DNA from: a virus
Length of the DNA stretch: 64,000 nucleotides
Virus record (IMG/VR): IMGVR_UViG_3300026097_000980
Coordinates: 91,509-155,508 of that record
Direction: 5' to 3' (one strand)
Each line of letters begins with the position of its first letter. The first letter of the stretch is position 1. The notes below the pieces were generated by a model. It searched no databases, was not told the origin of the DNA, and worked only from the letters and a program-made list of their open reading frames with translations. A program made the position numbers and the translations under genes. This document shows positions 123 through 62,875 of the stretch, piece after piece.

Positions 123-807
123 TGTTCGCTCCTAGTGTTGTATAAAGTTGTTTGAGTTCTGTGTAATTTTTTACAGTTGTATTTTTCCTAGCATTAGCTA
201 CAGTGCTAGGTTTTTTGTTAGAATGTAGGTCAAAATCAAACACTGTTTTAAGATCCTGTTTCGGATTAAATGATAGCCGATCATAATCAACTATCCTATC
301 AAATTCGCAAAAATTTTCCACGTAGTTTTTTTGTCTTTTAAGGGTATAATACGCTTCTGCGAATAGTTCGGTACTTACAGTGATCTTTTTAACCATACCA
401 AACTCAAATCTTTTTCTGTGCCATTTTCCTGTTTCAGACGCTACAGAATAACTTAACACAATATCAAATAAATTTTGTCTGTCAATGTATACTGTATAGA
501 AATTTGCATCTACATAATTTCTGTATTCTCTATCTAAATCTTTGAACTTTTCAAAGTGATTCTCTTTTTGGCTGATATACCAAAAAAGATTCCCGATATC
601 TTTTATTAGAGCCGAGTTACTGTTTTTTATATTTTTTAATTTGTTAACAAATTTTTTATAGTCTGTATCATATTCTAAGTCAGGGTTTTTGCCAGTGTGA
701 AACGGCTCACAATAATCAACATTATAATGTTGCATAAACTGTGCAATCTCTAACATATATGTGCTTCCTGATCTAGGAAGACTAATTATTGCAATTTTAT
801 CTATCAT
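115..807 (-). CDS. Sulfotransferase-family protein
   Basis: N-terminal ISLPRSGSTY PAPS-binding loop, EPF motif, R-x7-S motif. Confidence 0.65.
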   Translation of the reverse strand: MIDKIAIISLPRSGSTYMLEIAQFMQHYNVDYCEPFHTGKNPDLEYDTDYKKFVNKLKNIKNSNSALIKDIGNLFWYISQKENHFEKFKDLDREYRNYVDANFYTVYIDRQNLFDIVLSYSVASETGKWHRKRFEFGMVKKITVSTELFAEAYYTLKRQKNYVENFCEFDRIVDYDRLSFNPKQDLKTVFDFDLHSNKKPSTVANARKNTTVKNYTELKQLYTTLGANNE

Positions 808-1123: not shown

Positions 1124-3115
1124 TCACTGTTCATATTGACTTCTCACCATTGATTTATGTTTTGCATCGCTGGCTCCATTAAAGAAGCGAGCCGCAGGAT
1201 TGTCATAGTTCTTCTTGTCCGTGTATATATCCTTTGGCGGGTATAAATCGCCGTCTGCCATTTGCGGTTGTTGATATGCTCTAAAGTCGGGATTATATCC
1301 TAACAGTGCTACCAGTGCTGATTCATCTGTGCTACCTGCCATTGCAGCCTGTGCCAGTCTATCTTCTTCTGCATTGGCTTGTGCGATACTGGTTTCATTG
1401 GCTTCTTCCATTGTATCTTCTTGTTCGTCCTTGATGTCTTGTAGTGTGCGTTCTGCAACGCCGTTCACAATGTCGCGTATCAGATTCAAATCCAAACTGG
1501 CCAGTTCAATGTCTGCCATGTCAGCACCTTGACTTAACTGCTCTGATGCGCTCAGTGCAGATTCGCCTGTGATGTCTTCAGTTTGCACTGACCCGCCCTG
1601 TGCAAGATCCATGCTGTTGTCACTGCCCGCATTGCCTGCACTACTACCAGAGCCGTCCATACTGTTCATACTGCCCATGCCACTGCCTTGTGAACTGCTA
1701 CTTCCAAAGCCTCCTCCACTGCTACTCATACTGGAGTTCATAGCACTAAGACTGCTTGTAAGGCTCTGTGTGCTACTCTCTGCGGCTGTGCTTTGTGCGG
1801 CACTGGCTACATCGTCAGCGGCACTGAGAGCGTTCAGTTCGTTTGCGTTTAAGGATCTTCCCGATCCTGATGAGGTTGTTTCCGTGCTCGGAGCAATATC
1901 CCCTGTTGACACTTCAATACCTCCAGCGACTGCTTGTGTTTCTTGCACAGGCGTTCCTGTTGCTGGGTCAGTTGTCTCCATTCCCACCATTCCTTGAGAT
2001 TGTGTATCCATTGAAACATTTCCTGTTCCTCCTGTTATATCTGGAGTGCCTGTAAAATCTTGTGTGCCTGAATATAAATCTTGTTGCGGTGCTATTTGTG
2101 CCATCATAGCATCATTGTAGCCTGGACATTCTGGGGAGAATGTAGGATCTGCTGAACACTGTGCTGACAGCAATACCGTATCCTCTAGGCTTTCCTCTTC
2201 TAGGGGATTGCCTGCGTATCTGTAGTTCAGTTTGATTGAGGGATTCGCAAACTCTGGACCGTAGTATCCTGCCCAGTATCCCAAATCTTTACCAGTCACA
2301 TTCAGTTGAATAGATTCCAGTGTGTTCACATCAAACGGGTCTTTGAATGTTTCCTCACCTGAGATGTTTGTCCACTCACTGTAATATTGACTGTAGTCAT
2401 AGGTCTTTGAAAACACAGCCGTGCCCTGTGTGTCACGAATAACTACCTCCACATAGAAAGTGTCTGGAGTGCTTCTTGCATTATTAGTATAGTTGGCATC
2501 CCAGTTCTTGACACTCCACGAATAGTTGTAGCCAGTGGCTTCTATTCCTGCTTGCTCTAGTGCAATGTTTATTGCGGCGAGGTTCGTGAGTGTGCGTTCT
2601 ACATATCCAAAGTTAATCTGTCCATCCGCCGCACCAACGTATTGATCATTAATAGTAGGACATGATCCGCCTGAAGTTCCACCCCATCCTCTGTTAAGTT
2701 CGTAGCATCCATTCCAATATTGGCTAGTGTCACCTATCAAGTCGCCGGTTTGCCCCACAATGTATTCCTGTGTTGCCCAGTCTATCTCGTCAATCTGTAT
2801 ATATGAGTAGGTAGAATCCATTGACCTATTGACGCAGACATCTGAACGACCCACATACACTTTGTTTACATCGTCTCTCAAACAAAGATATTCGTTGCCT
2901 AACACGCCGTCCGATCCTGTGGTTGAGTTTTCTGAATAGAAATATTCGTCAACACTGCCGCCTTGATCTATCCACCAATCTTTTATTTCATTGTGGTCGG
3001 GTGCTTGGAATGTGTGGGTGTCGTGAGGACCCGCTTTAGAAAGCGGCGCCACCAGTAGCATACATAAGCAGAGCACTGCCCAATATGCCCCAGCCAATGC
3101 CTTTGAGTGTGTCAT
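1124..3115 (-). CDS. Large secreted/surface protein with Ser/Gly/Met-rich low-complexity region
   Basis: Signal-peptide-like N-terminus, 663 aa, acidic. Confidence 0.6.
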   Translation of the reverse strand: MTHSKALAGAYWAVLCLCMLLVAPLSKAGPHDTHTFQAPDHNEIKDWWIDQGGSVDEYFYSENSTTGSDGVLGNEYLCLRDDVNKVYVGRSDVCVNRSMDSTYSYIQIDEIDWATQEYIVGQTGDLIGDTSQYWNGCYELNRGWGGTSGGSCPTINDQYVGAADGQINFGYVERTLTNLAAINIALEQAGIEATGYNYSWSVKNWDANYTNNARSTPDTFYVEVVIRDTQGTAVFSKTYDYSQYYSEWTNISGEETFKDPFDVNTLESIQLNVTGKDLGYWAGYYGPEFANPSIKLNYRYAGNPLEEESLEDTVLLSAQCSADPTFSPECPGYNDAMMAQIAPQQDLYSGTQDFTGTPDITGGTGNVSMDTQSQGMVGMETTDPATGTPVQETQAVAGGIEVSTGDIAPSTETTSSGSGRSLNANELNALSAADDVASAAQSTAAESSTQSLTSSLSAMNSSMSSSGGGFGSSSSQGSGMGSMNSMDGSGSSAGNAGSDNSMDLAQGGSVQTEDITGESALSASEQLSQGADMADIELASLDLNLIRDIVNGVAERTLQDIKDEQEDTMEEANETSIAQANAEEDRLAQAAMAGSTDESALVALLGYNPDFRAYQQPQMADGDLYPPKDIYTDKKNYDNPAARFFNGASDAKHKSMVRSQYEQ

Positions 3116-4001
3116 TGCGTCTGGTTTCCTCTTCCTGTTCAGTAGGCTTTAGTTCTGGATACTTTGCCCACATTTCTTTGGCTTCATCGCCTATCTTGCC
3201 ATTGAACGGACAAGGTGTTCCAGCCATTTCCATTGCTGTAAATACCTTTGGATCCTGGCACATTAGACTCACAGCCGCAACCTTCATGCCCATGTTGTAC
3301 AGGGTCTTTGAATTCTTTAGTCGCTCACAGTTTAGATCACGAACATGTCCACCGCCCGCAATACCCAGTATTTGACTTTGCACTGCCGCTGAATATGAAA
3401 CTGTGCAGGTGTCATTGCCTCCTGCGTTCACCGTGGGGGCAATAGCACTGGGTGGTGGTGACTTGATGGTCTGTGTAATATCACTCTTGTTGTTGTTATT
3501 GTTTGTGTTGTTATTGTTGTTGGTGTTATTACTGGTTGACGTATTTGTGTTCGTGTTGTTGTTAGTGTTTGTGTTCGTGCTGGTGCTGTTCACAGTTTGG
3601 TCAACAGTTTGATCAATGGTGCTGTCCGTGGTCTGATTGATAGTGCTGTCTGTGGTCTGATTGATTGTGCTGTTAGTAGTGTTATTAATCGTGCTGTTGT
3701 TGGTGTTGTTGGTAGTCTGATCAATAGTGCTGTTATTAGTGTTTGTGTTAGTGTTGGTGTTGTTAGTGCCGCCACTCAGAATATTGTTGTTGGTGTTTGT
3801 GTTTGTGTTGGTGGTTCCGCCACTCAGCACATTATTGTTGGTATTTGTACTGTTCACCGTTGAGTTGGTATTTGTGGTGCTTTCCGTCACCACAAGGCTT
3901 GAACTGTCTGCTTCGCCATCTGCATCTTCAAGTGCATGTGCTTGTGGCACCGCACTGATAGACAAGGCTATAACTGCTACGAATAGCACTCTTTTAATCA
4001 T
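3036..4001 (-). CDS. Secreted/membrane-anchored Asn/Thr-repeat protein with Cys-rich C-terminal domain
   Basis: Start moved to ATG 4001 (GGAGCGA SD); signal peptide; (NT)n and STIDQT repeats; C-terminal TM segment. Confidence 0.65.
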   Translation of the reverse strand: MIKRVLFVAVIALSISAVPQAHALEDADGEADSSSLVVTESTTNTNSTVNSTNTNNNVLSGGTTNTNTNTNNNILSGGTNNTNTNTNTNNSTIDQTTNNTNNSTINNTTNSTINQTTDSTINQTTDSTIDQTVDQTVNSTSTNTNTNNNTNTNTSTSNNTNNNNNTNNNNNKSDITQTIKSPPPSAIAPTVNAGGNDTCTVSYSAAVQSQILGIAGGGHVRDLNCERLKNSKTLYNMGMKVAAVSLMCQDPKVFTAMEMAGTPCPFNGKIGDEAKEMWAKYPELKPTEQEEETRRNDTLKGIGWGILGSALLMYATGGAAF

Positions 4002-4097
4002 TTTTCGCTCCCGGGATAAATCGTATTCCCTCAACAGTATTTAATCACAGGTTATTGTGAATTTTAGTACTACTTTAGTACAAGTATTTATCATAAA

Positions 4098-11638: not shown

Positions 11639-13240
<1,602 letters not shown>

Positions 13241-14336: not shown

Positions 14337-16139
14337 CTATTTTTCTCTTTTGATCTGCTGGGTTCCCTGTTTCTCTATCCACTGAGATCTTTTTTTTTGA
14401 TCTTGTTGTTCAGCTATCCATTTGAGTGCTTCGGTAGCATCCTCGTCGAGCTCTAAATATTCTTCAGTTTCCCAAGGCAATAACTCTATTTTTCCGTGTT
14501 TTAACAATTGTCTTTGTCTTTTTAAACTGTCCTCAGGATTGTCTGCCTTCCACATTCTCATTGCTTCTCTTTCAGCTTCATGAACAGAATCTAAAATTTC
14601 TTCGTCCGTTTCGTCGTACTCTTCTTCTGTATCATTATCCGAATCGATCTCTGTCTCGACTGTCTCAATTTCTGTTTCAGTGATTTCAACTTCTTGATTG
14701 ATTTTTTCATCTCTACTTACAGGATTTTCGTCATTGTAAAATTCTTCTACCAATCCTTGTGTTTCTTTTTGCGTAGCAAGGTCCCAATCTTGTAAATATT
14801 TTGGATCTATCGTTGGCGCCGGTATGTAGTCATCTTGCGTAGGATCGCTTCCTTGTTCCTCTGGAATTGGTTCCTCACTTCCTCTATCCGTTCCATTAGG
14901 AGGTCCGTCTCCGTCAGGATCCTCTGGCCCTCCATCATTATCGTTGGGCTCATCTTTTTCCTCGGTGGCAGTTTCATTTCGCTCCTCCCTGCTCCAATTA
15001 AAAGTATACTGGCTTGCAATTAGAAGTAGTACAGCAAGAGGATCAAACACAATGATAATAACAATAATAACCCAACGAACTGCTTCTTCTAATAGATTTT
15101 TATCTGCTTGCTCGCCATAGATAAACTCTGCAATATACTTGATAGGACCAACTTCCGCTTCTAGCTTGCGATACTCAGCTTCTAGAGTAAACTTTTGTTC
15201 TGTGAGAGCGTCAAGCTCTGTGTTAGCGGCTTTGATTCTTGCGTTCTGTTCGTCGATGATAGCATCAATATCTTCGCCTGTGCTTTGACCTAATTGTCCA
15301 CGAAGTCTGCCAATAAGTTTGTTGCTGTCATCAATCTCTGCTTCAGCACGACTACGAAGTCTCTGTATTTCTTCTTGAGCGTTTGCTTTTAGTTCTTCAA
15401 TCTTAGCGAGAATCTCCGTACGTTCTTGCTCGAGCCCTTCTTTATATGCAGATACAGCACGGGCTGTGCCGCCGCCGTATGCACCGTCTGGTCTAGTACC
15501 TACTAGACTTTGTAGGCGTTTAACTGCTTCTTCGTCTGTGGTATCAATATCGGATAGTTCGTTAAATCTAGCAAGTTTTTCATCAACAGCTGGAAGTTGA
15601 CCTAAATAAAATTCTTTGTCTCGTTCAAGTTTTTCGTTAGTAGCATCAATAGCAGGTTGTACACGATCGTAGGCTGTGTCAATACGCTCTTGTTCTCTGT
15701 CAATCTGTGACTGTATGTTTTGATCTGCACCTGTGCCTGAAGTTTGTGTAGTTTCTACTATTTGTTCGGCACGAGCAATAACTGCTTGCTGTCTAGCAAT
15801 CTCTTTTTCAATCTGTTCAATTTGTGCAACGCCTTCGCCTGCGGCTGACGTCTGTTCTATGTGTGCCTTTGACAAGAACCCAAAGATACCCATGCTTGTA
15901 ATAAACATTAGAATAATAACAGCGGTACTTAGATAGGTTTTGAGCCACCAAGTAGCACGTTCCCAGTGCTTGTGTAACCACACTGCTGTGACCAGTTTAC
16001 CAATCTCAAGAGCGCCGCCCATAATGATAATTGGAACTGCGGCTGCCGCAAAGATAGCAACAAGCCCTGCTACTGAGTAGTAAATGGCAACCGCACTAAT
16101 AGTGAGTGCGGTGATGAGTGTTAGTACTGCTAAGAACAT
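14337..16139 (-). CDS. Membrane coiled-coil protein with peptidoglycan-binding-like segment and acidic tail
   Basis: Three N-terminal TMs, long coiled coil, LQSLVGTRPDGAYGGGT, a further TM. Confidence 0.7.
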   Translation of the reverse strand: MFLAVLTLITALTISAVAIYYSVAGLVAIFAAAAVPIIIMGGALEIGKLVTAVWLHKHWERATWWLKTYLSTAVIILMFITSMGIFGFLSKAHIEQTSAAGEGVAQIEQIEKEIARQQAVIARAEQIVETTQTSGTGADQNIQSQIDREQERIDTAYDRVQPAIDATNEKLERDKEFYLGQLPAVDEKLARFNELSDIDTTDEEAVKRLQSLVGTRPDGAYGGGTARAVSAYKEGLEQERTEILAKIEELKANAQEEIQRLRSRAEAEIDDSNKLIGRLRGQLGQSTGEDIDAIIDEQNARIKAANTELDALTEQKFTLEAEYRKLEAEVGPIKYIAEFIYGEQADKNLLEEAVRWVIIVIIIVFDPLAVLLLIASQYTFNWSREERNETATEEKDEPNDNDGGPEDPDGDGPPNGTDRGSEEPIPEEQGSDPTQDDYIPAPTIDPKYLQDWDLATQKETQGLVEEFYNDENPVSRDEKINQEVEITETEIETVETEIDSDNDTEEEYDETDEEILDSVHEAEREAMRMWKADNPEDSLKRQRQLLKHGKIELLPWETEEYLELDEDATEALKWIAEQQDQKKRSQWIEKQGTQQIKREK

Positions 16140-17394: not shown

Positions 17395-17946
17395 TTATTC
17401 GGCTCTGTAAAAGATGTGAGCACCGATGCGTCCAATTGTGCGGAATCGCTTGTTCCAACTTGGGTCAACATAGGTTGCATGATAGTGAGTAGCACCTTCT
17501 GTGATGCCTCTGTATAAGTCGCGATTGAGGATTTGAAATGCCACAGTCTGTGCCCGTCTCCATGCCTCGGCATCAGTAGGATTATCACTCTTGCCATCAC
17601 AGAACCAGCTGAACTGACACTTGTGTCTAACAGGTACAAGTTTGTTGTGATTATCTTTCCACCATTTGGAATATTTCGCATCTTGAACTACTCCACAAGG
17701 TGTGTTCGGCCAGCGGCTGTCTCGCACACGATTAAGAACAACATCGCTGACAGCGAACATTCCTGCAAGATTGTCTGAACGACTTTCGTGGTACACATTT
17801 AGTGCCATACAGTATTCCTGCGGATGGCTCTCCATTGTGTATAATTCTGCTTCTGGTGCTCTGATAGTATCACCAAAGGAATTGTCTGACGCAACCGATA
17901 CTGTTGCAAACAACATCGAAGACACGATTGCTGTTGTAAATTTCAT
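17395..17946 (-). CDS. Cell-wall hydrolase, SleB/Hydrolase_2 family
   Basis: CMALNVYHESR, VLNRV, CQFSWFCDG, GATHYHA, IGAHIFY; signal peptide. Confidence 0.9.
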   Translation of the reverse strand: MKFTTAIVSSMLFATVSVASDNSFGDTIRAPEAELYTMESHPQEYCMALNVYHESRSDNLAGMFAVSDVVLNRVRDSRWPNTPCGVVQDAKYSKWWKDNHNKLVPVRHKCQFSWFCDGKSDNPTDAEAWRRAQTVAFQILNRDLYRGITEGATHYHATYVDPSWNKRFRTIGRIGAHIFYRAE

Positions 17947-17999
17947 TATTCGCTCCATCAATTATTTAAAGGTTAATCTCTTATAATAAACTGTTAAGT

Positions 18000-20486: not shown

Positions 20487-20540
20487 TTTATTTCCTTCTG
20501 TGTGTGATATTGTTTAGATATCTAAGTATAGTTATAAAAG

Positions 20541-20562
20541 AAAAGCACCCGAAGGTGCTTTT
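20541..20562 (-). terminator. Terminator of tmRNA
   Basis: AAAAGCACC-cgaa-GGTGCTTTT. Confidence 0.8.
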
Positions 20563-20878
20563 CTGACTTTTGGATTACAAGGCAGTCAACCCCGAAGCCT
20601 CATGCGGCCAGTGCGAATGTTTCATCATTTGCAGTTATTTTATTTTGCTTCTACGACCGGGTATACTCCCAATCCTAACGGCTTTCACATTGCCGGTAAC
20701 TCCACTCGCCTAATCATCTCGCCGTCGAATCCTTGATCTGCCCCATCATAGATACACCACGTTCTTCTCCTACTATTTCACCTTTCGGTCTACTCTCTCG
20801 GAGTTGTAGATGTATCTATGGTGGAACAGCCGGGAGTCGAACCCGGGTCCGTCAACCTTTCGGTCTGCTTCATCGTTA
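20563..20878 (-). ncRNA. ssrA: Circularly permuted (two-piece) tmRNA, tag ANDETFALAA
   Basis: Acceptor piece with T-arm CCGGGTTCGACTCCCGG and CTGTTCCACCA ending at 20819; 74-nt intervening stem; coding piece GGGGCAG...GGATTCGAC from 20744; G3-U70 pair; tag ORF 20632-20600. Confidence 0.92.
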
Positions 20879-20887
20879 CAGTATTAT

Positions 20888-21172
20888 TTAACTATCTTTT
20901 TTGCTGTCTGTCAAGTCTTCTAATTGCTTTTTTAAATTTAAGACTTGGATATGCAGTAACATGTTTTCCACAACCAATTTAGTCATAGATGCAAGGAGCA
21001 CAACTTTGTCTTCTTCTGTGTACTCTTCTTTATCGAATTGCTCCAGGATAGATGTTCCTATCATTTTAAAGGCTTCGTCTTTGCCTACAGATAATTTATC
21101 CCAAGGAATAGGATCTCCCGATTCCGCTTCTTTAGCGATGTCTACTAATAATTCTAAATCAATTTCTCTCAT
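20888..21172 (-). CDS. Hypothetical protein
   Basis: 94-aa ORF coupled to upstream gene. Confidence 0.6.
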   Translation of the reverse strand: MREIDLELLVDIAKEAESGDPIPWDKLSVGKDEAFKMIGTSILEQFDKEEYTEEDKVVLLASMTKLVVENMLLHIQVLNLKKQLEDLTDSKKDS

Positions 21173-40087: not shown

Positions 40088-40416
40088 ACATTAGGTTCCT
40101 CTAGTATCGGAGCGAACTCATCTCCCATTAGCATAACGCAACCTTTGTTGAGTTCGGGGAATTCGATCGTAACGGTAAACCCTTTGCCTTGCGGATCAAC
40201 ATACAGTTTACCAGCACCTTGGATTATATCGCCATTGGGCATACGGATAACACTGGGTCCACCAGCAAAGGGTTGTTCGTTATATGTTTCTAGAAACTGT
40301 TTGTTTTCATCTATGGATTTACAAACGGCTACCATTGGAAGTGATTCAACCGCGAATGTCAGGGCTGATAAAGTTAGCCCTAACAAAAAAGCAGTCGTTT
40401 GGGCTAACTTCTTCAT
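40084..40416 (-). CDS. Secreted hypothetical protein
   Basis: Signal peptide, two Cys. Confidence 0.6.
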   Translation of the reverse strand: MKKLAQTTAFLLGLTLSALTFAVESLPMVAVCKSIDENKQFLETYNEQPFAGGPSVIRMPNGDIIQGAGKLYVDPQGKGFTVTIEFPELNKGCVMLMGDEFAPILEEPNV

Positions 40417-41564: not shown

Positions 41565-41648
41565 TCGTCGCTCCTTTAATCTACTGTAATCATATTTATT
41601 GCAAAAACCCTATAAATATTAGTAGATTAAACTTCCGGGAGCGAAACA

Positions 41649-42452
41649 ATGGAACTTATTTCACCAGCCGTTAAAAGCGGTATTTCAACTCTTACACTGT
41701 CAGGTCGTGCTTTGTTATTTGCAGAGCTGGCCTCAATAGCCTATATGGACGAAAAAGAAGCAACCAGTCAAGCAAAGAAACTAGGATTCACAACTGTTGA
41801 ATTCTACAATAAAGCTGGTGCTCAAGCCTATCGGTTTATGAGCAAGCGAGATCTTGTGATCATCTGCCGTGGCACAGAGCCAACAGAATGGAATGACATT
41901 AAAGCAGACCTAGATGCTGTTCCTGTTATGGCTGAAACTGTTAGTCGTGTTCATAGAGGATTCAAAGCAGAAGTTGACGAACTATGGCCAATGGTTATAG
42001 AAGATGTTCAGCGTGAAGCAGAAGGCAGAGACCTTTGGTTCTGCGGACACAGTTTAGGTGCGGCAATGACTACAATCATGGCAAGCAGATGCTTCCACGA
42101 TCCGGACCTTGCTGATCCAGTAGAAGTTCACACATATGGTTCACCAAGAGTAGGATGGCCAGGATATGCTAAAAGTCTCGGTATGACACATCATCGTTGG
42201 GTTAACAACAACGACATAGTCACCCGAGTTCCTATGTGGATTATGGGTTATCGTCATCACGGTATAGAACACTATATCGATTCAGAAGGCGACGTGGATC
42301 AGGAAAAAGGTCTTGCTCGTTTCTGGGATGGCTTTCAAGGAACTGTAAGAGGACTACTAAAAGGAAGTGTGGATCAGATTTCAGATCATAATATGAGTGA
42401 ATATATCAAACATCTTGCTAGAAATGCACGGGGTAGAATAGAACCCAAATAA
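41649..42452 (+). CDS. Class 3 lipase
   Basis: RGTE, VHRGF, CGHSLGAA, YGSPRVG, NNNDIVTRVP, DH. Confidence 0.92.
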   Translation: MELISPAVKSGISTLTLSGRALLFAELASIAYMDEKEATSQAKKLGFTTVEFYNKAGAQAYRFMSKRDLVIICRGTEPTEWNDIKADLDAVPVMAETVSRVHRGFKAEVDELWPMVIEDVQREAEGRDLWFCGHSLGAAMTTIMASRCFHDPDLADPVEVHTYGSPRVGWPGYAKSLGMTHHRWVNNNDIVTRVPMWIMGYRHHGIEHYIDSEGDVDQEKGLARFWDGFQGTVRGLLKGSVDQISDHNMSEYIKHLARNARGRIEPK

Positions 42453-47433: not shown

Positions 47434-47484
47434 CAACTCTTAAGATTTTTTGTATACTTGTATAAATTGTGTTAGGAGCGAAGC

Positions 47485-47991
47485 ATGAGCAAACACTTTT
47501 TCGAGAGAGTACAACAAGGGTATGCAGGTGTAAAGAAAACAGTTTCGACTACCTGTTCACTTGCATACTGTAACGAAACATCTTCTAAATATAAAGGATA
47601 CGGTTCGAGATTATGTGAACACCATCAGAGTTTGATGCGTGAATACGGCGGCCCGGGCCGCACTGATCGTCCGTATACATTCCATAAAAACCGCCACTGT
47701 GAATGTTGCGGACTTGACCCGTGGGAACATCCTATGGTTAAAAAAATAGACGACGAACTGGTTCGAGATAGAGTTGCATGGGGCATGCTTATTGTAGATC
47801 ATCTACACACCCAGCGTGACGGCGGCTGTGACAGCAAGCATAATGTACAAACACTATGTAGAATGTGTGATCAAATAAAAACCACACTGGCCTGTGACAG
47901 CATGCCAAAAGCTCGTTACAAAGACGAAGCAGAATATTATGCTGTTATTGAACGTCTCCGTCCTTATTATGAAAAACTGTTTGGAAAATAA
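47485..47991 (+). CDS. Zn-binding HNH-like protein
   Basis: CECCG, IVDH, NVQTLCRMCD; TTGACA-17-TATACT at 47430-47458. Confidence 0.65.
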   Translation: MSKHFFERVQQGYAGVKKTVSTTCSLAYCNETSSKYKGYGSRLCEHHQSLMREYGGPGRTDRPYTFHKNRHCECCGLDPWEHPMVKKIDDELVRDRVAWGMLIVDHLHTQRDGGCDSKHNVQTLCRMCDQIKTTLACDSMPKARYKDEAEYYAVIERLRPYYEKLFGK

Positions 47992-54446: not shown

Positions 54447-54567
54447 CGTTGAACAACAGTTGAACAAAAAAGTTTTACTGTTCACCATTTGTCCTAAAAA
54501 TAACACTTTACACATACGTGCGCAGACGTTACTATATACACATACTTTAAAAAACGGAGCGTACACT

Positions 54568-54819
54568 ATGCAAAATTACACAACTGCTGTTGCAAGCGTT
54601 ATTGCTTACTATGCAAAAATGATTGCAGAAGCAAGCTACGACTCAGTAGCGGAAGCAAGCGACTACAGCATTACAGACAACTGCGCAAAAATACAGTACT
54701 TGCTTGCGGAAAGTGCGCAACACACTACTGTGCAAAGTTTAGCAGTTGCCGCAATAAACAGCAGTGCGGATACAGTAGTACGCGAATGCATGTACACACA
54801 ATTAATGCAACACACGTAG
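54568..54819 (+). CDS. Early hypothetical protein (DTVVRE motif)
   Basis: Own promoter and GGAGCG SD; start MQNYTT. Confidence 0.7.
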   Translation: MQNYTTAVASVIAYYAKMIAEASYDSVAEASDYSITDNCAKIQYLLAESAQHTTVQSLAVAAINSSADTVVRECMYTQLMQHT

Positions 54820-55193: not shown

Positions 55194-55640
55194 ATGCAAT
55201 ACTGTAATATTAATACACACTGCGCTGTGGTTGATAGCGCAAACTATGCACTGCTTACAGCAGAACAACAGCAAACACTTACACAAGCGGAAAAGTGTTT
55301 TGTTGTGCAATTTTTAGCAGATACACTTGCAAGCTTAACACAACTTAATAATGCAAGTGTAGTTGAGGGTGAGGAGTACGTTATACGTTTAACGGACGCA
55401 CTTGAAGTTATGCAAAACTTGCAAGCACTGTATGAAACGTATGAGGATGATAACGCACAGTTAACGTTTACAATAGCAGATGCGGGTGCGGCAATTTGTA
55501 GTTACGATACAGAGTACAGAGAGTGCATTGCGGAGCAATTTGAGTGTGCGTGTGATGAGCAAGCAAAACTTGCAAAGCAATTGCACACTACTGGTGCGGA
55601 CTATAGCACACTTGCACTGCGTGTAATTTACGCTTACTAA
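55194..55640 (+). CDS. Early acidic hypothetical protein (DTEYRE motif)
   Basis: Own promoter and GGAGCGAA SD. Confidence 0.75.
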   Translation: MQYCNINTHCAVVDSANYALLTAEQQQTLTQAEKCFVVQFLADTLASLTQLNNASVVEGEEYVIRLTDALEVMQNLQALYETYEDDNAQLTFTIADAGAAICSYDTEYRECIAEQFECACDEQAKLAKQLHTTGADYSTLALRVIYAY

Positions 55641-55709
55641 AAAAACACTTGACAAAGTGTGCGTATGCTGTTATAGTATACGCATACTTTAAATACAGGA
55701 GCGTACACT

Positions 55710-55877
55710 ATGCAAGCAAAGCAAGCATACACTGTTAACTTAACAGCAAACGAAGTTAGCACACTGCTAGAGTTAGTAAAAGCGGAGCAACAGCACTACG
55801 AGGACAGTGAGGACACAACAGACGTTGCTGTGTACACACTGTGCGACAACATACTAAACAAATTGTATAACGCATAA
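55710..55877 (+). CDS. Early 55-aa acidic protein (MQAKQAY...; not in ORF track)
   Basis: Own promoter and GGAGCG SD. Confidence 0.7.
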   Translation: MQAKQAYTVNLTANEVSTLLELVKAEQQHYEDSEDTTDVAVYTLCDNILNKLYNA

Positions 55878-55945
55878 AAAACACTTGACAACTGTGTATG
55901 TGTGTGCTATAGTATACACATACACTAAACAAAACGGAGCGAACA

Positions 55946-56128
55946 ATGACAGTAGCAGAACTTGTAGCACAGCTACAGCAACTTCCACAAGACCTCGCAG
56001 TCACAGCGTTTTCACATCAACAAGCACAAGAGCTTGAACTGTATAGTGCGGAACTGTTTGAAGCAATGGGCACACCTGAAGATGAGCACTATATTCCAGA
56101 ATCAGTCACACTGCACTTCGACGTATAA
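55946..56128 (+). CDS. Early hypothetical protein
   Basis: MTVAELVAQLQQLPQD; promoter and SD. Confidence 0.7.
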   Translation: MTVAELVAQLQQLPQDLAVTAFSHQQAQELELYSAELFEAMGTPEDEHYIPESVTLHFDV

Positions 56129-56137
56129 GGAGCGAAC

Positions 56138-56932
56138 ATGCCAGCCAAAAGAGAAACAGATGCGGAAATTGTCGAACGCTTACGCGAGCGTTTCGATATC
56201 CTTAACTTAATGACAGCCGCTGTTAAAGCAGGCGATATCCGAGCAATGATTGTAACAGGTCCTCCGGGTGTGGGCAAGAGTTTCGGTGTTCAAGCCACAC
56301 TAGAGAAGGACGACCTATTCGCCACACTGGGCAATCGTCCACCCAAGTATGAGTTTGTTAAAGGTGCTATGAGTGCAGTGGGCTTGTACGCCAAACTGTA
56401 TCAGTATAGTGCTCGAGACGAAGTCCTAGTGTTTGATGACTGTGATAGCATTCTACTAGACGATCTCTCGCTTAACATTTTAAAGGCCGCATTGGATTCG
56501 GGCAAGAAGCGCATGATCCATTGGAACACGGATTCACGTAGCCTACGACAGGAAGGCATCCCTCACAGCTTTGAGTACAAGGGCGGTGCTATCTTCATCA
56601 CCAACCTTAAGTTTGAGAACGTGCGTAGCAAGAAACTAAAGGACCACCTTGAGGCATTAGAGTCACGCTGTCACCACATTGACTTGGGCATGGACACTGA
56701 TCGTGAAAAGGTTCTGCGCATCAAACAGATTGTGCAGGATGGCATGCTAGACGGATATGATCTTGCCAGCGACATCAAAGACAGCATTGTAGACTACGTA
56801 GTTGCCAACAAAGAACGACTGCGCGAACTCAGCCTGCGTTCAGTGTTGAAGATTGCAGACTTAGCCAAAGCACACCCGGATCGTTGGGAGCGCATGGCTG
56901 AGGTCACTGTGATGCGGAGGGCTCGTTCATGA
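56138..56932 (+). CDS. AAA+ ATPase
   Basis: Walker A GPPGVGKS, Walker B LVFDDCD, FITN, ALESR. Confidence 0.88.
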   Translation: MPAKRETDAEIVERLRERFDILNLMTAAVKAGDIRAMIVTGPPGVGKSFGVQATLEKDDLFATLGNRPPKYEFVKGAMSAVGLYAKLYQYSARDEVLVFDDCDSILLDDLSLNILKAALDSGKKRMIHWNTDSRSLRQEGIPHSFEYKGGAIFITNLKFENVRSKKLKDHLEALESRCHHIDLGMDTDREKVLRIKQIVQDGMLDGYDLASDIKDSIVDYVVANKERLRELSLRSVLKIADLAKAHPDRWERMAEVTVMRRARS

Positions 56933-57099
56933 TCGATGCAGGATATTGGAGTACTTGCCAGTACATTCTCTACAGGGGTCGTACACCAGACGGTACCAAG
57001 TACTGTGGAGTTGACAGCAACGGGCGTAGTTCATACTGTGAAGAACATCATGCAGTATGTTATACAGCACACAAGCGCAAGCGCAAGAAGAAACTTTAA
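56929..57099 (+). CDS. GcrA C-terminal-domain-like mini-protein (not in ORF track)
   Basis: 56 aa STCQYI...KYCG...SYCEEHHAVCY; ATGA overlap with ATPase and GGAGG SD. Confidence 0.6.
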   Translation: MIDAGYWSTCQYILYRGRTPDGTKYCGVDSNGRSSYCEEHHAVCYTAHKRKRKKKL

Positions 57100-57156
57100 T
57101 TCAATTTGGATCCCTAAGGGGTTGTTAAAAGAGTATATAACATGTACTATAATAAT

Positions 57157-57270
57157 ATAATAAAAACAATAACAATTTTATTATAGACATTACCGATCAC
57201 ACTGCGCAAGCTCCGATTCGCTCCCGGGGTGCAGTGGGGGGACTACGATCTTGTAGTCCCCTTTCTTTTT
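57157..57270 (+). ncRNA. Candidate trans-acting sRNA with anti-GGAGCGAA loop
   Basis: Promoter TTGTTA-17-TACTAT; A-rich 5' hairpin; hairpin with loop ATTCGCTCC (57216-57224); terminator GGGGACTAC/GTAGTCCCC plus T tract. Confidence 0.7.
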
Positions 57271-57367
57271 ATTCAAAATACCACAGGCCCCGCTGTAAAG
57301 GGGTTGACAAGTCCTATCAAAGACCATATACTGTATAGACAATGAAGCAATAAGTGGAGCGAACACT

Positions 57368-57685
57368 ATGAGCCAAAGAGATACTAACTCATTCGATAGA
57401 ACAGCAACCGCTGTCACAGCAATCATGCAACTTGAATCCGTAGAAGAGATCCGTGCGGTATGTGATGCGATCAAGCGTCAGCAAACATACCTCAGCACAC
57501 AGAACATCCGCAAGGTTGTGAAGGGTGCATGCGTGAGCTTTACTGATCGTTCGGGTCGTAAGATAGTTGGCACAGTCACAAAAGTCAACCGCAAGACTGT
57601 GGAGGTGTTAGGTGGCATGAGCAACGGCCTGTTCAGGACAACCTATAAGGTTCCAGGATCAATGTTAACAGTGGAGGGTGCGTAA
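57368..57685 (+). CDS. Early protein with SH3/KOW-like C-terminus
   Basis: VSFT...GTVTKVNRKTVEV...YKVP. Confidence 0.7.
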   Translation: MSQRDTNSFDRTATAVTAIMQLESVEEIRAVCDAIKRQQTYLSTQNIRKVVKGACVSFTDRSGRKIVGTVTKVNRKTVEVLGGMSNGLFRTTYKVPGSMLTVEGA

Positions 57686-58246: not shown

Positions 58247-58293
58247 CCATACACTATACATATAGTTAGGAAATAGGCATTAGGAGCGAAACT

Positions 58294-58638
58294 ATGCAAG
58301 CACAAATCGAAAAGCTTATCCAAGACATCAAAGCGGACTACGTGCGTTTCATGACTGGCGTTGGCGACAAAGAAGACATCCGCCAAGACATGATCGACAA
58401 CTTCGTAGACAGCATCACATACAACGAAGGCAAGAAGTATATCAAGATCCTCAAGAAGCTGGGTAGCCAGACTATGGTGTGGGGCTTCATCGTAAATGTA
58501 GACGACGACAAGAAGTTCCGCAAGGGTGACATCTTAATGGCGGCAGGCTACAATGCTCCTGCTCGCAACAAGCCACGTGGCAATGTTATTGATGGCAACT
58601 ACAGTATTCGTTGGACTGGACCGGAGTACTTAAAGTGA
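58294..58638 (+). CDS. Hypothetical phage early protein
   Basis: KKYIKI...VWGF...GDILMAAGYNAPARNKPRGNV. Confidence 0.75.
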   Translation: MQAQIEKLIQDIKADYVRFMTGVGDKEDIRQDMIDNFVDSITYNEGKKYIKILKKLGSQTMVWGFIVNVDDDKKFRKGDILMAAGYNAPARNKPRGNVIDGNYSIRWTGPEYLK

Positions 58639-58850: not shown

Positions 58851-58912
58851 GGGTTGACATCTTTCTTTACAGAGGCTATACTGTAAAGACAATGAACAGA
58901 CAGGAGCGAAAC

Positions 58913-59272
58913 ATGTCAAATTCAGTAGAAGCAATGTTGGTAGAGGCGGCACACGCCAAAGCAATCCAAGCGGCTCGCAATGCGGCCCAAGCGTTCGCAG
59001 ATCGCCACTTCGGCGGCGGCGATGGCGGTGCGTGTGGCTTTGCTTGGGTTGACGCATACAAGGTACGTTCAAATTCAAAGATGGGCAAGGCACTGCAGGA
59101 AGTAGGCTTCCGCAAGAGCTACACTGGTGCACTCCAACTGTGGAACGGACGTGATGGTTGGTATTTTGGCCAGAGCGTGGATGCCGCAGAAGAAGGTGCT
59201 CGTGCCTACGCTGAAGTATTCAAAGAAGAGCTTGAGCTTGACAACATCTACGCAGGATCGCGCTTAGACTAA
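58913..59272 (+). CDS. Hypothetical phage early protein (CGFAWV motif)
   Basis: Promoter and GGAGCGAA SD; start MSNSVE. Confidence 0.75.
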   Translation: MSNSVEAMLVEAAHAKAIQAARNAAQAFADRHFGGGDGGACGFAWVDAYKVRSNSKMGKALQEVGFRKSYTGALQLWNGRDGWYFGQSVDAAEEGARAYAEVFKEELELDNIYAGSRLD

Positions 59273-59392
59273 GGAACAAACGACCTGGGCACGTCGCGAG
59301 GAAAACTGCCCGTTTTATTTTTCCTAAATGGTTGACACTGATCCAAAATGGCCATACACTATACATATAGTAAGAAATTAGGAGCGAATCCA

Positions 59393-59788
59393 ATGACCAC
59401 ACTTTTACAACACATCGAGTCACTTAACGCACACGCAGACCTCATGATGGAGCAGGAGCCAGGTCTGTGGATGAGCAAGTACACGGACGATATGTCGCAT
59501 TGGGCAGACATGGGTGTGTACACCGTGGAGGACTTCAAGCGCAATCAGTTGATCAACGGCATCTCGGATGCCAGCAAGGACCTCTATGGTTGCCGCTTGC
59601 GTTTGGACTGGGATGAGATGACTATTGAGCAGATGGAGTCTACATACGAGAACATCTGTGCTCAACTGCGTATCCAGTTCGAAGAGGAGCAGGCTTGGGA
59701 GGCTTGGGAAGCAGAGTGTAAGAAAGGCTTGCCAGATGACTGCGAGCCTCTTCCATACGAAGAGTATGCAGACTTGGAGCGTGTGTAA
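59393..59788 (+). CDS. Early acidic protein
   Basis: Promoter and SD; ISDASKDLYGCRLR. Confidence 0.75.
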   Translation: MTTLLQHIESLNAHADLMMEQEPGLWMSKYTDDMSHWADMGVYTVEDFKRNQLINGISDASKDLYGCRLRLDWDEMTIEQMESTYENICAQLRIQFEEEQAWEAWEAECKKGLPDDCEPLPYEEYADLERV

Positions 59789-60026: not shown

Positions 60027-60080
60027 CACTGATCCAAAATGATCATACACTATACATATAGTGAAGTTAAGGAGCGAACA

Positions 60081-60236
60081 ATGGACTACAGAGATTACAC
60101 ACTTGAGCTGGTAGACGAAGGTCTAGTCGATGCACGTGACTTATTGGTCATGGCTGTAAAGTATATGAGTCAAGACGACGTCCGCGACATGATTACTGTC
60201 AACGAACTAGAAGCACTAACAGCGGAGGACGCATAA
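60081..60236 (+). CDS. Early acidic protein (MDYRDY...)
   Basis: Promoter and SD. Confidence 0.7.
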   Translation: MDYRDYTLELVDEGLVDARDLLVMAVKYMSQDDVRDMITVNELEALTAEDA

Positions 60237-62077: not shown

Positions 62078-62140
62078 ACCGGTTGACAACCTCTTCAAAA
62101 GATCCTATACTATACATATAGTGAAGTTAAGGAGCGAACG

Positions 62141-62242
62141 ATGGCTTACACTGCAAATCACCTAGATGTCATGCTTGTACTTGCCGCCACCGGCATTGCG
62201 ATTAGTTATTTGATGATCACCGGCGAATGGAGGAAGTTCTAA
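62141..62242 (+). CDS. 33-aa single-TM peptide (MAYTANH...)
   Basis: Promoter and GGAGCGAA SD. Confidence 0.6.
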   Translation: MAYTANHLDVMLVLAATGIAISYLMITGEWRKF

Positions 62243-62538: not shown

Positions 62539-62605
62539 AGGGGTTGACTGTGATCCAAATTGAGTCTATACTGTATAGACAATGAAGCATTAAGGAGCGA
62601 ACACA

Positions 62606-62875
62606 ATGCGAGTAGTAGAACAATACGGCATGTTTACTGACACTGGCGACTACATGGTAGACCGCATCGTACGTGCCGGCATCACAATGTGCCACGCAGA
62701 CACCCCAGCAACCAATGCTGAAATTTGGGGATTCGTCAAGCGTGAGTGCGCCAAGCTTGCAACTTCAGAAGACTTTGCAGAAGCAACTGACACTGTGGTC
62801 AGAGAGGAATGCTTCACAGCACTGTTCAATTGCATTCCAGGATTTAACCTTTCAGAAGACCAATACTGGGCATAA
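62606..62875 (+). CDS. Early protein (DTVVRE motif)
   Basis: Promoter and SD. Confidence 0.7.
   Translation: MRVVEQYGMFTDTGDYMVDRIVRAGITMCHADTPATNAEIWGFVKRECAKLATSEDFAEATDTVVREECFTALFNCIPGFNLSEDQYWA

Follow-up and report, generated by a model that had tools for sequence, protein, structure and literature searches.

The final part of an uncultured virus contig was found to encode an RNA hairpin whose 9-nt apical loop, AUUCGCUCC, is exactly complementary to an 8-nt tag, GGAGCGAA, placed at the ribosome-binding sites (RBSs) of about 17 phage genes, most of them first in an early transcription unit. Sequence comparisons within the contig and among its relatives indicate that the RNA probably masks these sites, including those in its own operon. 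The address is kept across well over a hundred uncultured metagenomic phage contigs, and a sister clade has another, likewise matching, pair of tag and loop. No description of the present system was found in the literature on the motif and on phage anti-Shine-Dalgarno RNAs.

Genomic setting of the hairpin unit

The analyzed stretch of DNA (the window, 64,000 nt) is the final 64 kb of a linear IMG/VR virus contig of 155,508 bp, which has a G+C content of 40% and a completeness of 42% (CheckV). The contig encodes a ribonucleotide reductase, a GroEL-type chaperonin, a DNA ligase, three tRNAs, and a permuted tmRNA. No DNA-level match to the hairpin region was obtained by blastn against 50,697 phage records. 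The hairpin unit sits within a block of short plus-strand genes (about 54.5-63.5 kb; "early block"), in which a promoter scan detected 35 sigma-70-like promoter-like sites against 13.7 expected. It is flanked by a 56-aa ORF (56929-57099) and by ORF 57368-57685, and belongs to a transcription unit that runs from a promoter at 55885 to a terminator at 57263 and has tagged leaders at 55936 and 56129. The features of the unit and of its surroundings are as follows.

11639-13237, minus strand: phage-encoded GroEL-type chaperonin gene (PHROG 5725, E 1e-168)
20509-20911, minus strand: permuted (two-piece) tmRNA gene (Rfam tmRNA_permuted, 81.7 bits)
56138-56932, plus strand: AAA ATPase gene, NrdC.10-like (PHROG 1250)
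56929-57099, plus strand: 56-aa ORF overlapping the ATPase stop codon (weak GcrA C-terminal match, E 2.7e-4, below the Pfam cut-off)
57125-57153, plus strand: promoter-like site TTAAAA-17-TATAAT (promoter scan, 10/12)
57156-57185, plus strand: weak A/U-only 5' hairpin with an A-rich loop (AACAAUAACAA) (fold)
57200-57236, plus strand: anti-leader (motif) hairpin (fold, conservation and covariation in relatives)
57216-57224, plus strand: 9-nt loop AUUCGCUCC, complement of GGAGCGAAU (sequence, fold)
about 57237-57270, plus strand: intrinsic terminator with a stem of 11-12 bp and a U-run (fold, terminator scan)

The phage homologues of the window ATPase include T4-type nrdC.10 genes, and its best isolate matches were in PA5oct-like Pseudomonas jumbo phages (46% identity). 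The protein has 264 aa, and most homologues have about 340 aa with an additional N-terminal part of about 90 aa. The 60-aa ORF 55946-56128 was considered as this missing part and rejected, having no similarity to P0001. In one sub-lineage of the relatives, small ORFs homologous to the 56-aa ORF trail the ATPase gene. The permuted tmRNA encodes the tag peptide ANDETFALAA and may be a pointer to the host lineage; an alphaproteobacterial host is only hinted at, by this tmRNA and by the weak GcrA-like match.

Structure of the hairpin unit

Folding of the plus-strand RNA 57155-57275 gave three hairpins, namely the weak A/U hairpin, the motif hairpin, and the terminator (57237-57262 in this fold), with a minimum free energy (MFE) of -38.8 kcal/mol (z = -5.1), and none of 200 shuffled sequences was as stable. 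The motif hairpin comprises an outer stem of 6 bp (CACUGC/GCAGUG) and an inner stem of 6 bp (GCUCCG/CGGGGU) with a 4-nt bulge (GCAA) between them on the 5' side, and its loop was single-stranded in both the MFE and the centroid folds. The loop sequence occurs in this sense only once in the 155.5-kb contig. The downstream element is a G+C-rich stem followed by a U-run, as in intrinsic terminators (12 pairs at 57236-57263, then TCTTTTTATT, in the terminator scan), and it is the sole strong plus-strand terminator of the early block. Both the hairpin with its 9-nt loop and the terminator had been proposed in an earlier note on this DNA, and sequence and fold bore them out. The promoter named there, TTGTTA-17-TACTAT (57122-57150), is present, but the overlapping TTAAAA-17-TATAAT scored higher; a transcript from this predicted site would begin near 57160. 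The search of the window against Rfam 15 returned nothing at gathering score, and for 57050-57350 nothing relevant was detected at E values up to 10.

Tagged leaders in the window

The word GGAGCGAA occurs 18 times in the window against 1.12 expected, a number reached by none of 100 shuffled sequences. Sixteen copies lie 0-4 nt before an ATG, in line with the earlier note, which described the loop as the reverse complement of many Shine-Dalgarno (SD) regions; of the other two, one is the loop itself read on the opposite strand, and the one at 40109 fits neither description. The copies without a start codon (window 40109, contig 10296) lie outside hairpin loops. In the early block, the tag was found on the promoter-proximal cistron of each unit, two units having the variant leader GGAGCGUA, and the internal, translationally coupled cistrons have other SD sites (e.g., GGAGGG, GGAGAA, and GGAGGU). 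Tagged leaders are carried by both strands, several of them 10-55 kb distant from the hairpin.

125-132, minus strand: GGAGCGAA leader of an ORF ending at 122 (start outside the window gene set)
4004-4015, minus strand: CCCGGGAGCGAA leader of ORF 3036-4001; 12 nt complementary
14978-14985, minus strand: GGAGCGAA immediately 5' of the ATG of ORF 14807-14977
17948-17956, minus strand: GGAGCGAAU leader of the SleB-type hydrolase gene 17395-17946; all 9 loop nt complementary
41635-41645, plus strand: CCGGGAGCGAA leader of the class-3 lipase gene 41649-42452; 11 nt complementary, into the inner stem
47475-47482, plus strand: GGAGCGAA leader of HNH-domain ORF 47485-47991
54556-54563, plus strand: variant leader GGAGCGUA of ORF 54568-54819; one mismatch to the loop
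55183-55190, plus strand: GGAGCGAA leader of ORF 55194-55640
55698-55705, plus strand: variant leader GGAGCGUA of ORF 55710-55877
55936-55943, plus strand: GGAGCGAA leader of ORF 55946-56128, first cistron of the hairpin-ended unit
56129-56136, plus strand: GGAGCGAA leader of the NrdC.10-like ATPase gene 56138-56932, in the hairpin's unit
57356-57363, plus strand: GGAGCGAA leader of ORF 57368-57685, downstream of promoter 57304-57332
58283-58290, plus strand: GGAGCGAA leader of ORF 58294-58638
58903-58910, plus strand: GGAGCGAA leader of ORF 58913-59272
59381-59388, plus strand: GGAGCGAA(UC) leader of ORF 59393-59788; 10 nt complementary including the closing G
60071-60078, plus strand: GGAGCGAA leader of ORF 60081-60236
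62131-62138, plus strand: GGAGCGAA leader of the 33-aa ORF 62141-62242
62594-62601, plus strand: GGAGCGAA leader of ORF 62606-62875

The calculated energy of the duplex between tag and loop was -12.4 to -13.4 kcal/mol, compared with -3.7 to -5.3 kcal/mol for pairing of the core SD. A duplex ranking of all start regions against the whole sRNA was set aside as uninformative because it ignores intramolecular folding and rewards stems. The extended matches of 12 nt (4004-4015), 11 nt (41635-41645), and 9 nt (SleB leader) agree with those described before, as do the Pfam assignments of gene 17395-17946 (SleB-type Hydrolase_2) and gene 41649 (class-3 lipase) with the labels given to them. The same note had placed the lipase and surface-protein genes in a late class, which was not established since TATAAATA, as a sign of T4-type late promoters, was not enriched in the window (5 copies against 3.7 expected).

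The location of the hairpin also invites an explanation purely in cis, in which the loop pairs with the leaders of its own operon (55936 and 56129) in a 5'-3' UTR contact, or with the next leader (57356) on read-through RNA, such that translation would proceed only from transcripts starting at the next promoter. In accordance with this explanation, the hairpin is always found where a tagged unit ends, shortly before the next promoter and tagged leader, intramolecular pairing is kinetically favoured, and the ATPase leader region also has CACUGCAC (56109-56116), complementary to the 3' arm of the hairpin, GUGCAGUG. However, a strong terminator separates the loop from 57356. Moreover, the contig has only one hairpin locus for about 17 tagged leaders, several of which are encoded on the opposite strand at distances of 10-55 kb, and retention of the tag at every one of these leaders requires action in trans. 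Pairing in cis only is thus considered unlikely.

Conservation of the hairpin in related phages

As relatives, 80 viral contigs (IMG/VR) were fetched with the ATPase protein (66-86% protein identity). About 70 of them carry the exact sequence GAUUCGCUCC on the gene strand behind the same NrdC.10-like ATPase gene, either directly 3' of it or one or two small ORFs further on, and the loop is accordingly the same in relatives that keep the tag, as the earlier note implied. Among the loci without GAUUCGCUCC, four are on contigs that end too early, and four further ones belong to an A+T-rich lineage in which the tag is absent too. The relatives hold one or two copies of the hairpin, and pairs are often 50-107 nt apart. 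In three contigs (L159, L171, and L183), two separate hairpin loci were observed 6-10 kb apart, indicating that the RNA is not always tied to the ATPase gene alone. A search for relatives with P0006 found none.

A total of 89 distinct hairpins have the identical loop, and the only sequence common to them is G-AUUCGCUCC-C; in the fold of each distinct instance, the motif forms the apical loop. The native flanks on the two sides folded to a mean of -15.7 kcal/mol, compared with -7.8 kcal/mol for flanks mixed between sequences. In an ungapped alignment of 29 terminator-doubling copies, anchored on the loop alone, double changes were present in all of the 10 outer pairs, 82.5% of the cells were paired against 59.6% after shuffling (0/500), and the covariation score was 0.564 against 0.12-0.29 for slid partners. 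When up to two mismatches were allowed, the sole loop variant detected in a hairpin context was AAUCGCUCC, three times. In the terminator-type copies (alignment A2, columns 15-20), a 5-nt bulge on the 5' side is semi-conserved as R-UAA-R-Y, with A17 in at least 90% of the copies, and the window copy has GCAA instead; the bulge could be a candidate protein or RNase site.

The A-rich 5' hairpin (57156-57185), previously interpreted as an ARN-type binding site for Hfq, was absent from all relatives, including the closest one (L001). A U-tail is present, and no conserved ARN or A/U-rich Hfq site was found, so this part of the earlier proposal is not supported. The earlier note also proposed a stand-alone sRNA of about 115 nt. 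A promoter-like site 65-85 nt upstream of the hairpin was detected in the window and in L001 (TTGACA-17-TACAAT at the corresponding place 5' of its hairpin copy) only. In most relatives, however, only 0-20 nt separate the start of the hairpin from the preceding stop codon, or the hairpin doubles as the terminator stem, and in those relatives it is therefore a 3'UTR element. A stand-alone sRNA with its own promoter would be, at most, a trait of the sub-lineage of the window and L001.

Joint difference of tag and loop between clades

In the relatives, GGAG near an ATG is continued by CGAA at 231 of 834 sites, and the next most frequent continuation was seen at 44. Viral contigs with the exact 15-mer CCGAUUCGCUCCCGG have a mean of 2.1 tagged starts in the same orientation and 0.12 in the opposite one, and bacterial genomes with the 15-mer have practically no tags. 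The 120+ bacterial matches to this 15-mer, from many G+C-rich phyla, were rejected as real copies and judged to be chance matches, as they are without tags and without U-runs.

A sister clade (B) was found within a set of 77 further loci obtained with the representative homologue P0009 (51% identity). In 30-odd of these 77 loci, the word GAGGGCA is enriched before start codons, and 2-4 tandem hairpins with UGCCCUC loops are located directly 3' of the homologous ATPase gene, the final one often being the terminator. The combinations of tag and loop in the loci with enough downstream sequence, together with the positions of tags and anti-tags on the sense strand, are listed below; the remaining loci are on truncated contigs or have the loop farther off.

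Tag A / loop A: 67 loci
Tag B / loop B: 28 loci
No tag / no loop: 44 loci
Crossed (tag A / loop B or tag B / loop A): 0 loci
Clade A, sense-strand tags with an ATG within 1-5 nt: 234/243 (96%)
Clade A, sense-strand anti-tags in apical loops: at least 82/116
Clade B, sense-strand tags with an ATG within 1-6 nt: 142/154
Clade B, sense-strand anti-tags in apical loops: 45/48

The co-variation of loop and leader, for which the earlier note had suggested a test, was thereby observed (67 A/A, 28 B/B, and 0 crossed). The three tag/loop states track the ATPase tree closely, four changes being needed where the minimum is two, and an independent-pairs test had about one usable contrast per type, too few for significance. 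Seed and targets are conserved and have changed together in the relatives, in few independent events, and the case therefore rests on two exact complementarities of 7-8 nt and not on many co-changes. The argument drawn from these comparisons is that two words, each with its exact complement, occupy the same structural and genomic position and are crossed in none of the loci.

The same table bears on two further explanations. Tag and anti-tag could be a double-stranded DNA site, GGAGCGAA/TTCGCTCC, read in either direction by a sequence-specific protein, and a change in the specificity of that protein would explain the sister clade. Such a site is the same on either strand, and tag and anti-tag would therefore change together without any RNA pairing. 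On the other hand, 96% of the sense copies contain the SD core and are followed by an ATG after 1-5 nt, both tags are SD cores with an extension, and the antisense copies lie in the apical loops of hairpins with covarying stems; a DNA site needs neither position. We give this explanation little probability. It is hardly credible that the element is an ordinary double-hairpin terminator with a fortuitous match between its loop and the leaders. The hairpin is indeed placed at the early block's only strong terminator, but the loop is invariant over about 90 hairpins with unrelated stems, and a second, different complementary pair was found at the same position in the sister clade with no crossed cases. 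Judging from the sequences, a chance match can be regarded as excluded, being contradicted by the loop invariance, the tag/loop table, and the split in position and orientation. The earlier concept of a single loop-displayed anti-leader for a barcoded gene set has held in its core (loop invariance, stem covariation, the kept tag, and the sister-clade pair), but not in its accessory claims.

In L326 of the sister clade, many leaders have the tag core twice (GGGCAAAC...AAGGGCAAAC) before one ATG, which may provide two pairing sites per leader in this four-loop phage.

Proposed mode of action

The structure, the loop invariance, the stem covariation, the complementarity, and the difference of tag and loop together between the clades are supported directly. 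That the RNA is made and stable, that it pairs in the cell, and that the outcome is repression is what we infer, the pairing from the sequences and the repression, stability, and timing from known anti-RBS RNAs. The RNA would be supplied either as a transcript of about 110 nt from its own promoter or as the 3' end of the ATPase operon mRNA. Its loop AUUCGCUCC is predicted to pair over 8-9 nt (up to 12 nt) with GGAGCGAA(U), a private extension of the SD core GGAG. Because the duplex would span both the SD site and the spacer, 30S subunits should be kept off. As the RNA would come from an early unit and be shielded by stable hairpins, it is expected to accumulate and to outlast the mRNAs, and the combination of early transcription with a stable hairpin end would result in delayed damping of the tagged set. 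The own operon would be damped through the leaders at 55936 and 56129, a delayed negative feedback, and host messages would be left alone.

Both tags consist of an SD core (GGAG and GAGG, respectively) with a private 3' extension in the spacer, and both loops consist of an anti-SD core with the matching extension. The spacer extension is free of constraint from ribosome pairing. Some observations count against masking of the ribosome sites, namely that an 8-bp duplex within a 9-nt loop is sterically tight, that the window has one hairpin where the relatives have 1-4, and that conservation does not extend to the 5' part of the putative sRNA.

The complementarity and the co-change of tag and loop are equally expected if the hairpin RNA protects or activates the tagged messages, by keeping the leaders safe from nucleolytic attack (by a RegB-like GGAG cutter, RNase E, or a host defence) or by holding early mRNAs in reserve. 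SD sites are known nuclease targets, as T4 RegB cuts GGAG in early leaders. Protection is nonetheless rather improbable. To our knowledge, a duplex over the SD and spacer blocks 30S binding in every well-studied case (RNAIII, CcsR, and OxyS). In addition, Pfam searches of the contig for RegB, RegA, and Gp23 gave no match, the Gp23 control included, and the absence of RegB and RegA homologues carries little weight because the contig is 42% complete.

Masking of the ribosome sites may be part of something broader. It is conceivable, and proposed here only tentatively, that tag and loop constitute a private and evolvable address code, by which the first cistron of each early unit and a few other genes are marked with an SD extension readable by the phage's own RNA alone and are switched as a set by one abundant hairpin RNA; the clades would then run orthogonal codes, GGAGCGAA/UUCGCUCC and GAGGGCA/UGCCCUC. 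In a bolder form, the hairpin would guide the NrdC.10-like AAA ATPase, whose gene lies directly upstream in the examined loci, to remodel or clear the tagged mRNAs.

Comparison with known regulators

T4 RegB (an endoribonuclease) and RegA (a translational repressor) are proteins that shut off many early genes post-transcriptionally. The proposed system resembles them as a phage-encoded early shut-off acting through a short RBS element (GGAG for RegB), but its effector would be an RNA. Early shut-off, which is done by proteins in T4-type phages, would here apparently be accomplished by one small RNA and an 8-nt RBS address.

In Staphylococcus aureus, the C-rich hairpin loops of RNAIII pair with the RBSs of several mRNAs and thereby block initiation. 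The present element likewise has a single-stranded, C-rich seed complementary to the RBSs of several mRNAs, as is characteristic of anti-RBS sRNAs such as RNAIII and the Rsa sRNAs. The loops of RNAIII and Rsa target the generic SD of host genes, whereas four of the 8 nt matched in the phage belong to a private extension, from which selectivity for the phage's own messages is expected. OppZ and CarZ of Vibrio cholerae are reportedly autoregulatory sRNAs derived from 3'UTRs, a type released from the mRNA by RNase E. Like them, the hairpin is located at an operon's 3' end, where it uses the operon terminator, and matches a cistron of the same operon; unlike them, it has a loop with matches in about 15 further leaders beyond this operon, and processing and feedback are in this case hypothetical.

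The closest parallel concerns the cuckoo RNA family of Alphaproteobacteria (RSs0680a-d/CcsR1-4, alpha-r14), which consists of 2-4 adjacent hairpins with variable stems that all display the anti-SD-like loop CCUCCUCCC (PMC4615179). These RNAs share a transcript with the gene upstream of them and precede a terminator-like hairpin, and S. aureus RNAIII and Rsa sRNAs with UCCC loops are cited in the same work (PMC4615179). The phage hairpins resemble cuckoo RNAs in having variable stems around one conserved anti-SD-like loop and in occurring as tandem copies. However, the phage loop is AUUCGCUCC and not CCUCCUCCC, the window has one hairpin (relatives 1-2, sister clade 2-4) instead of 2-4 adjacent ones, and cuckoo RNAs are chromosomal bacterial genes, whereas the present RNA is encoded by a phage. 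Furthermore, the phage loop, unlike that of cuckoo RNAs, matches a private tag on the phage's own leaders, and both differ together between the clades. As the defining loop motif is lacking and there was no Rfam match, the element appears to work like a cuckoo RNA without being a member of the family.

If confirmed, the hairpin would be a phage riboregulator controlling a whole temporal class of the phage's own genes, and the two clades would represent natural orthogonal SD codes that offer ready-made repressor/leader pairs for synthetic biology. The tag could also serve as a sequence marker by which early genes are recognized in the genomes of uncultured phages.

Repeated words near the hairpin unit

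The word TCACACTGC is repeated just upstream of the ATPase leader (56106-56116) and in the 5' arm of the hairpin (57197-57205), and it is through this repeat that the ATPase leader region carries CACUGCAC. The match between CACUGCAC and GUGCAGUG in the 3' arm (57229-57236) is possibly a second contact or a product of chance. Another word, AGGCCCCGCTGTAA, occurs in four exact, co-oriented copies on the plus strand (53219, 53618, 53826, and 57285) against 0.16 expected, one of them downstream of the hairpin unit's terminator and upstream of the promoter that follows. At the corresponding place, the relatives have a different conserved word, GGCCGGCACTCC.GCC.
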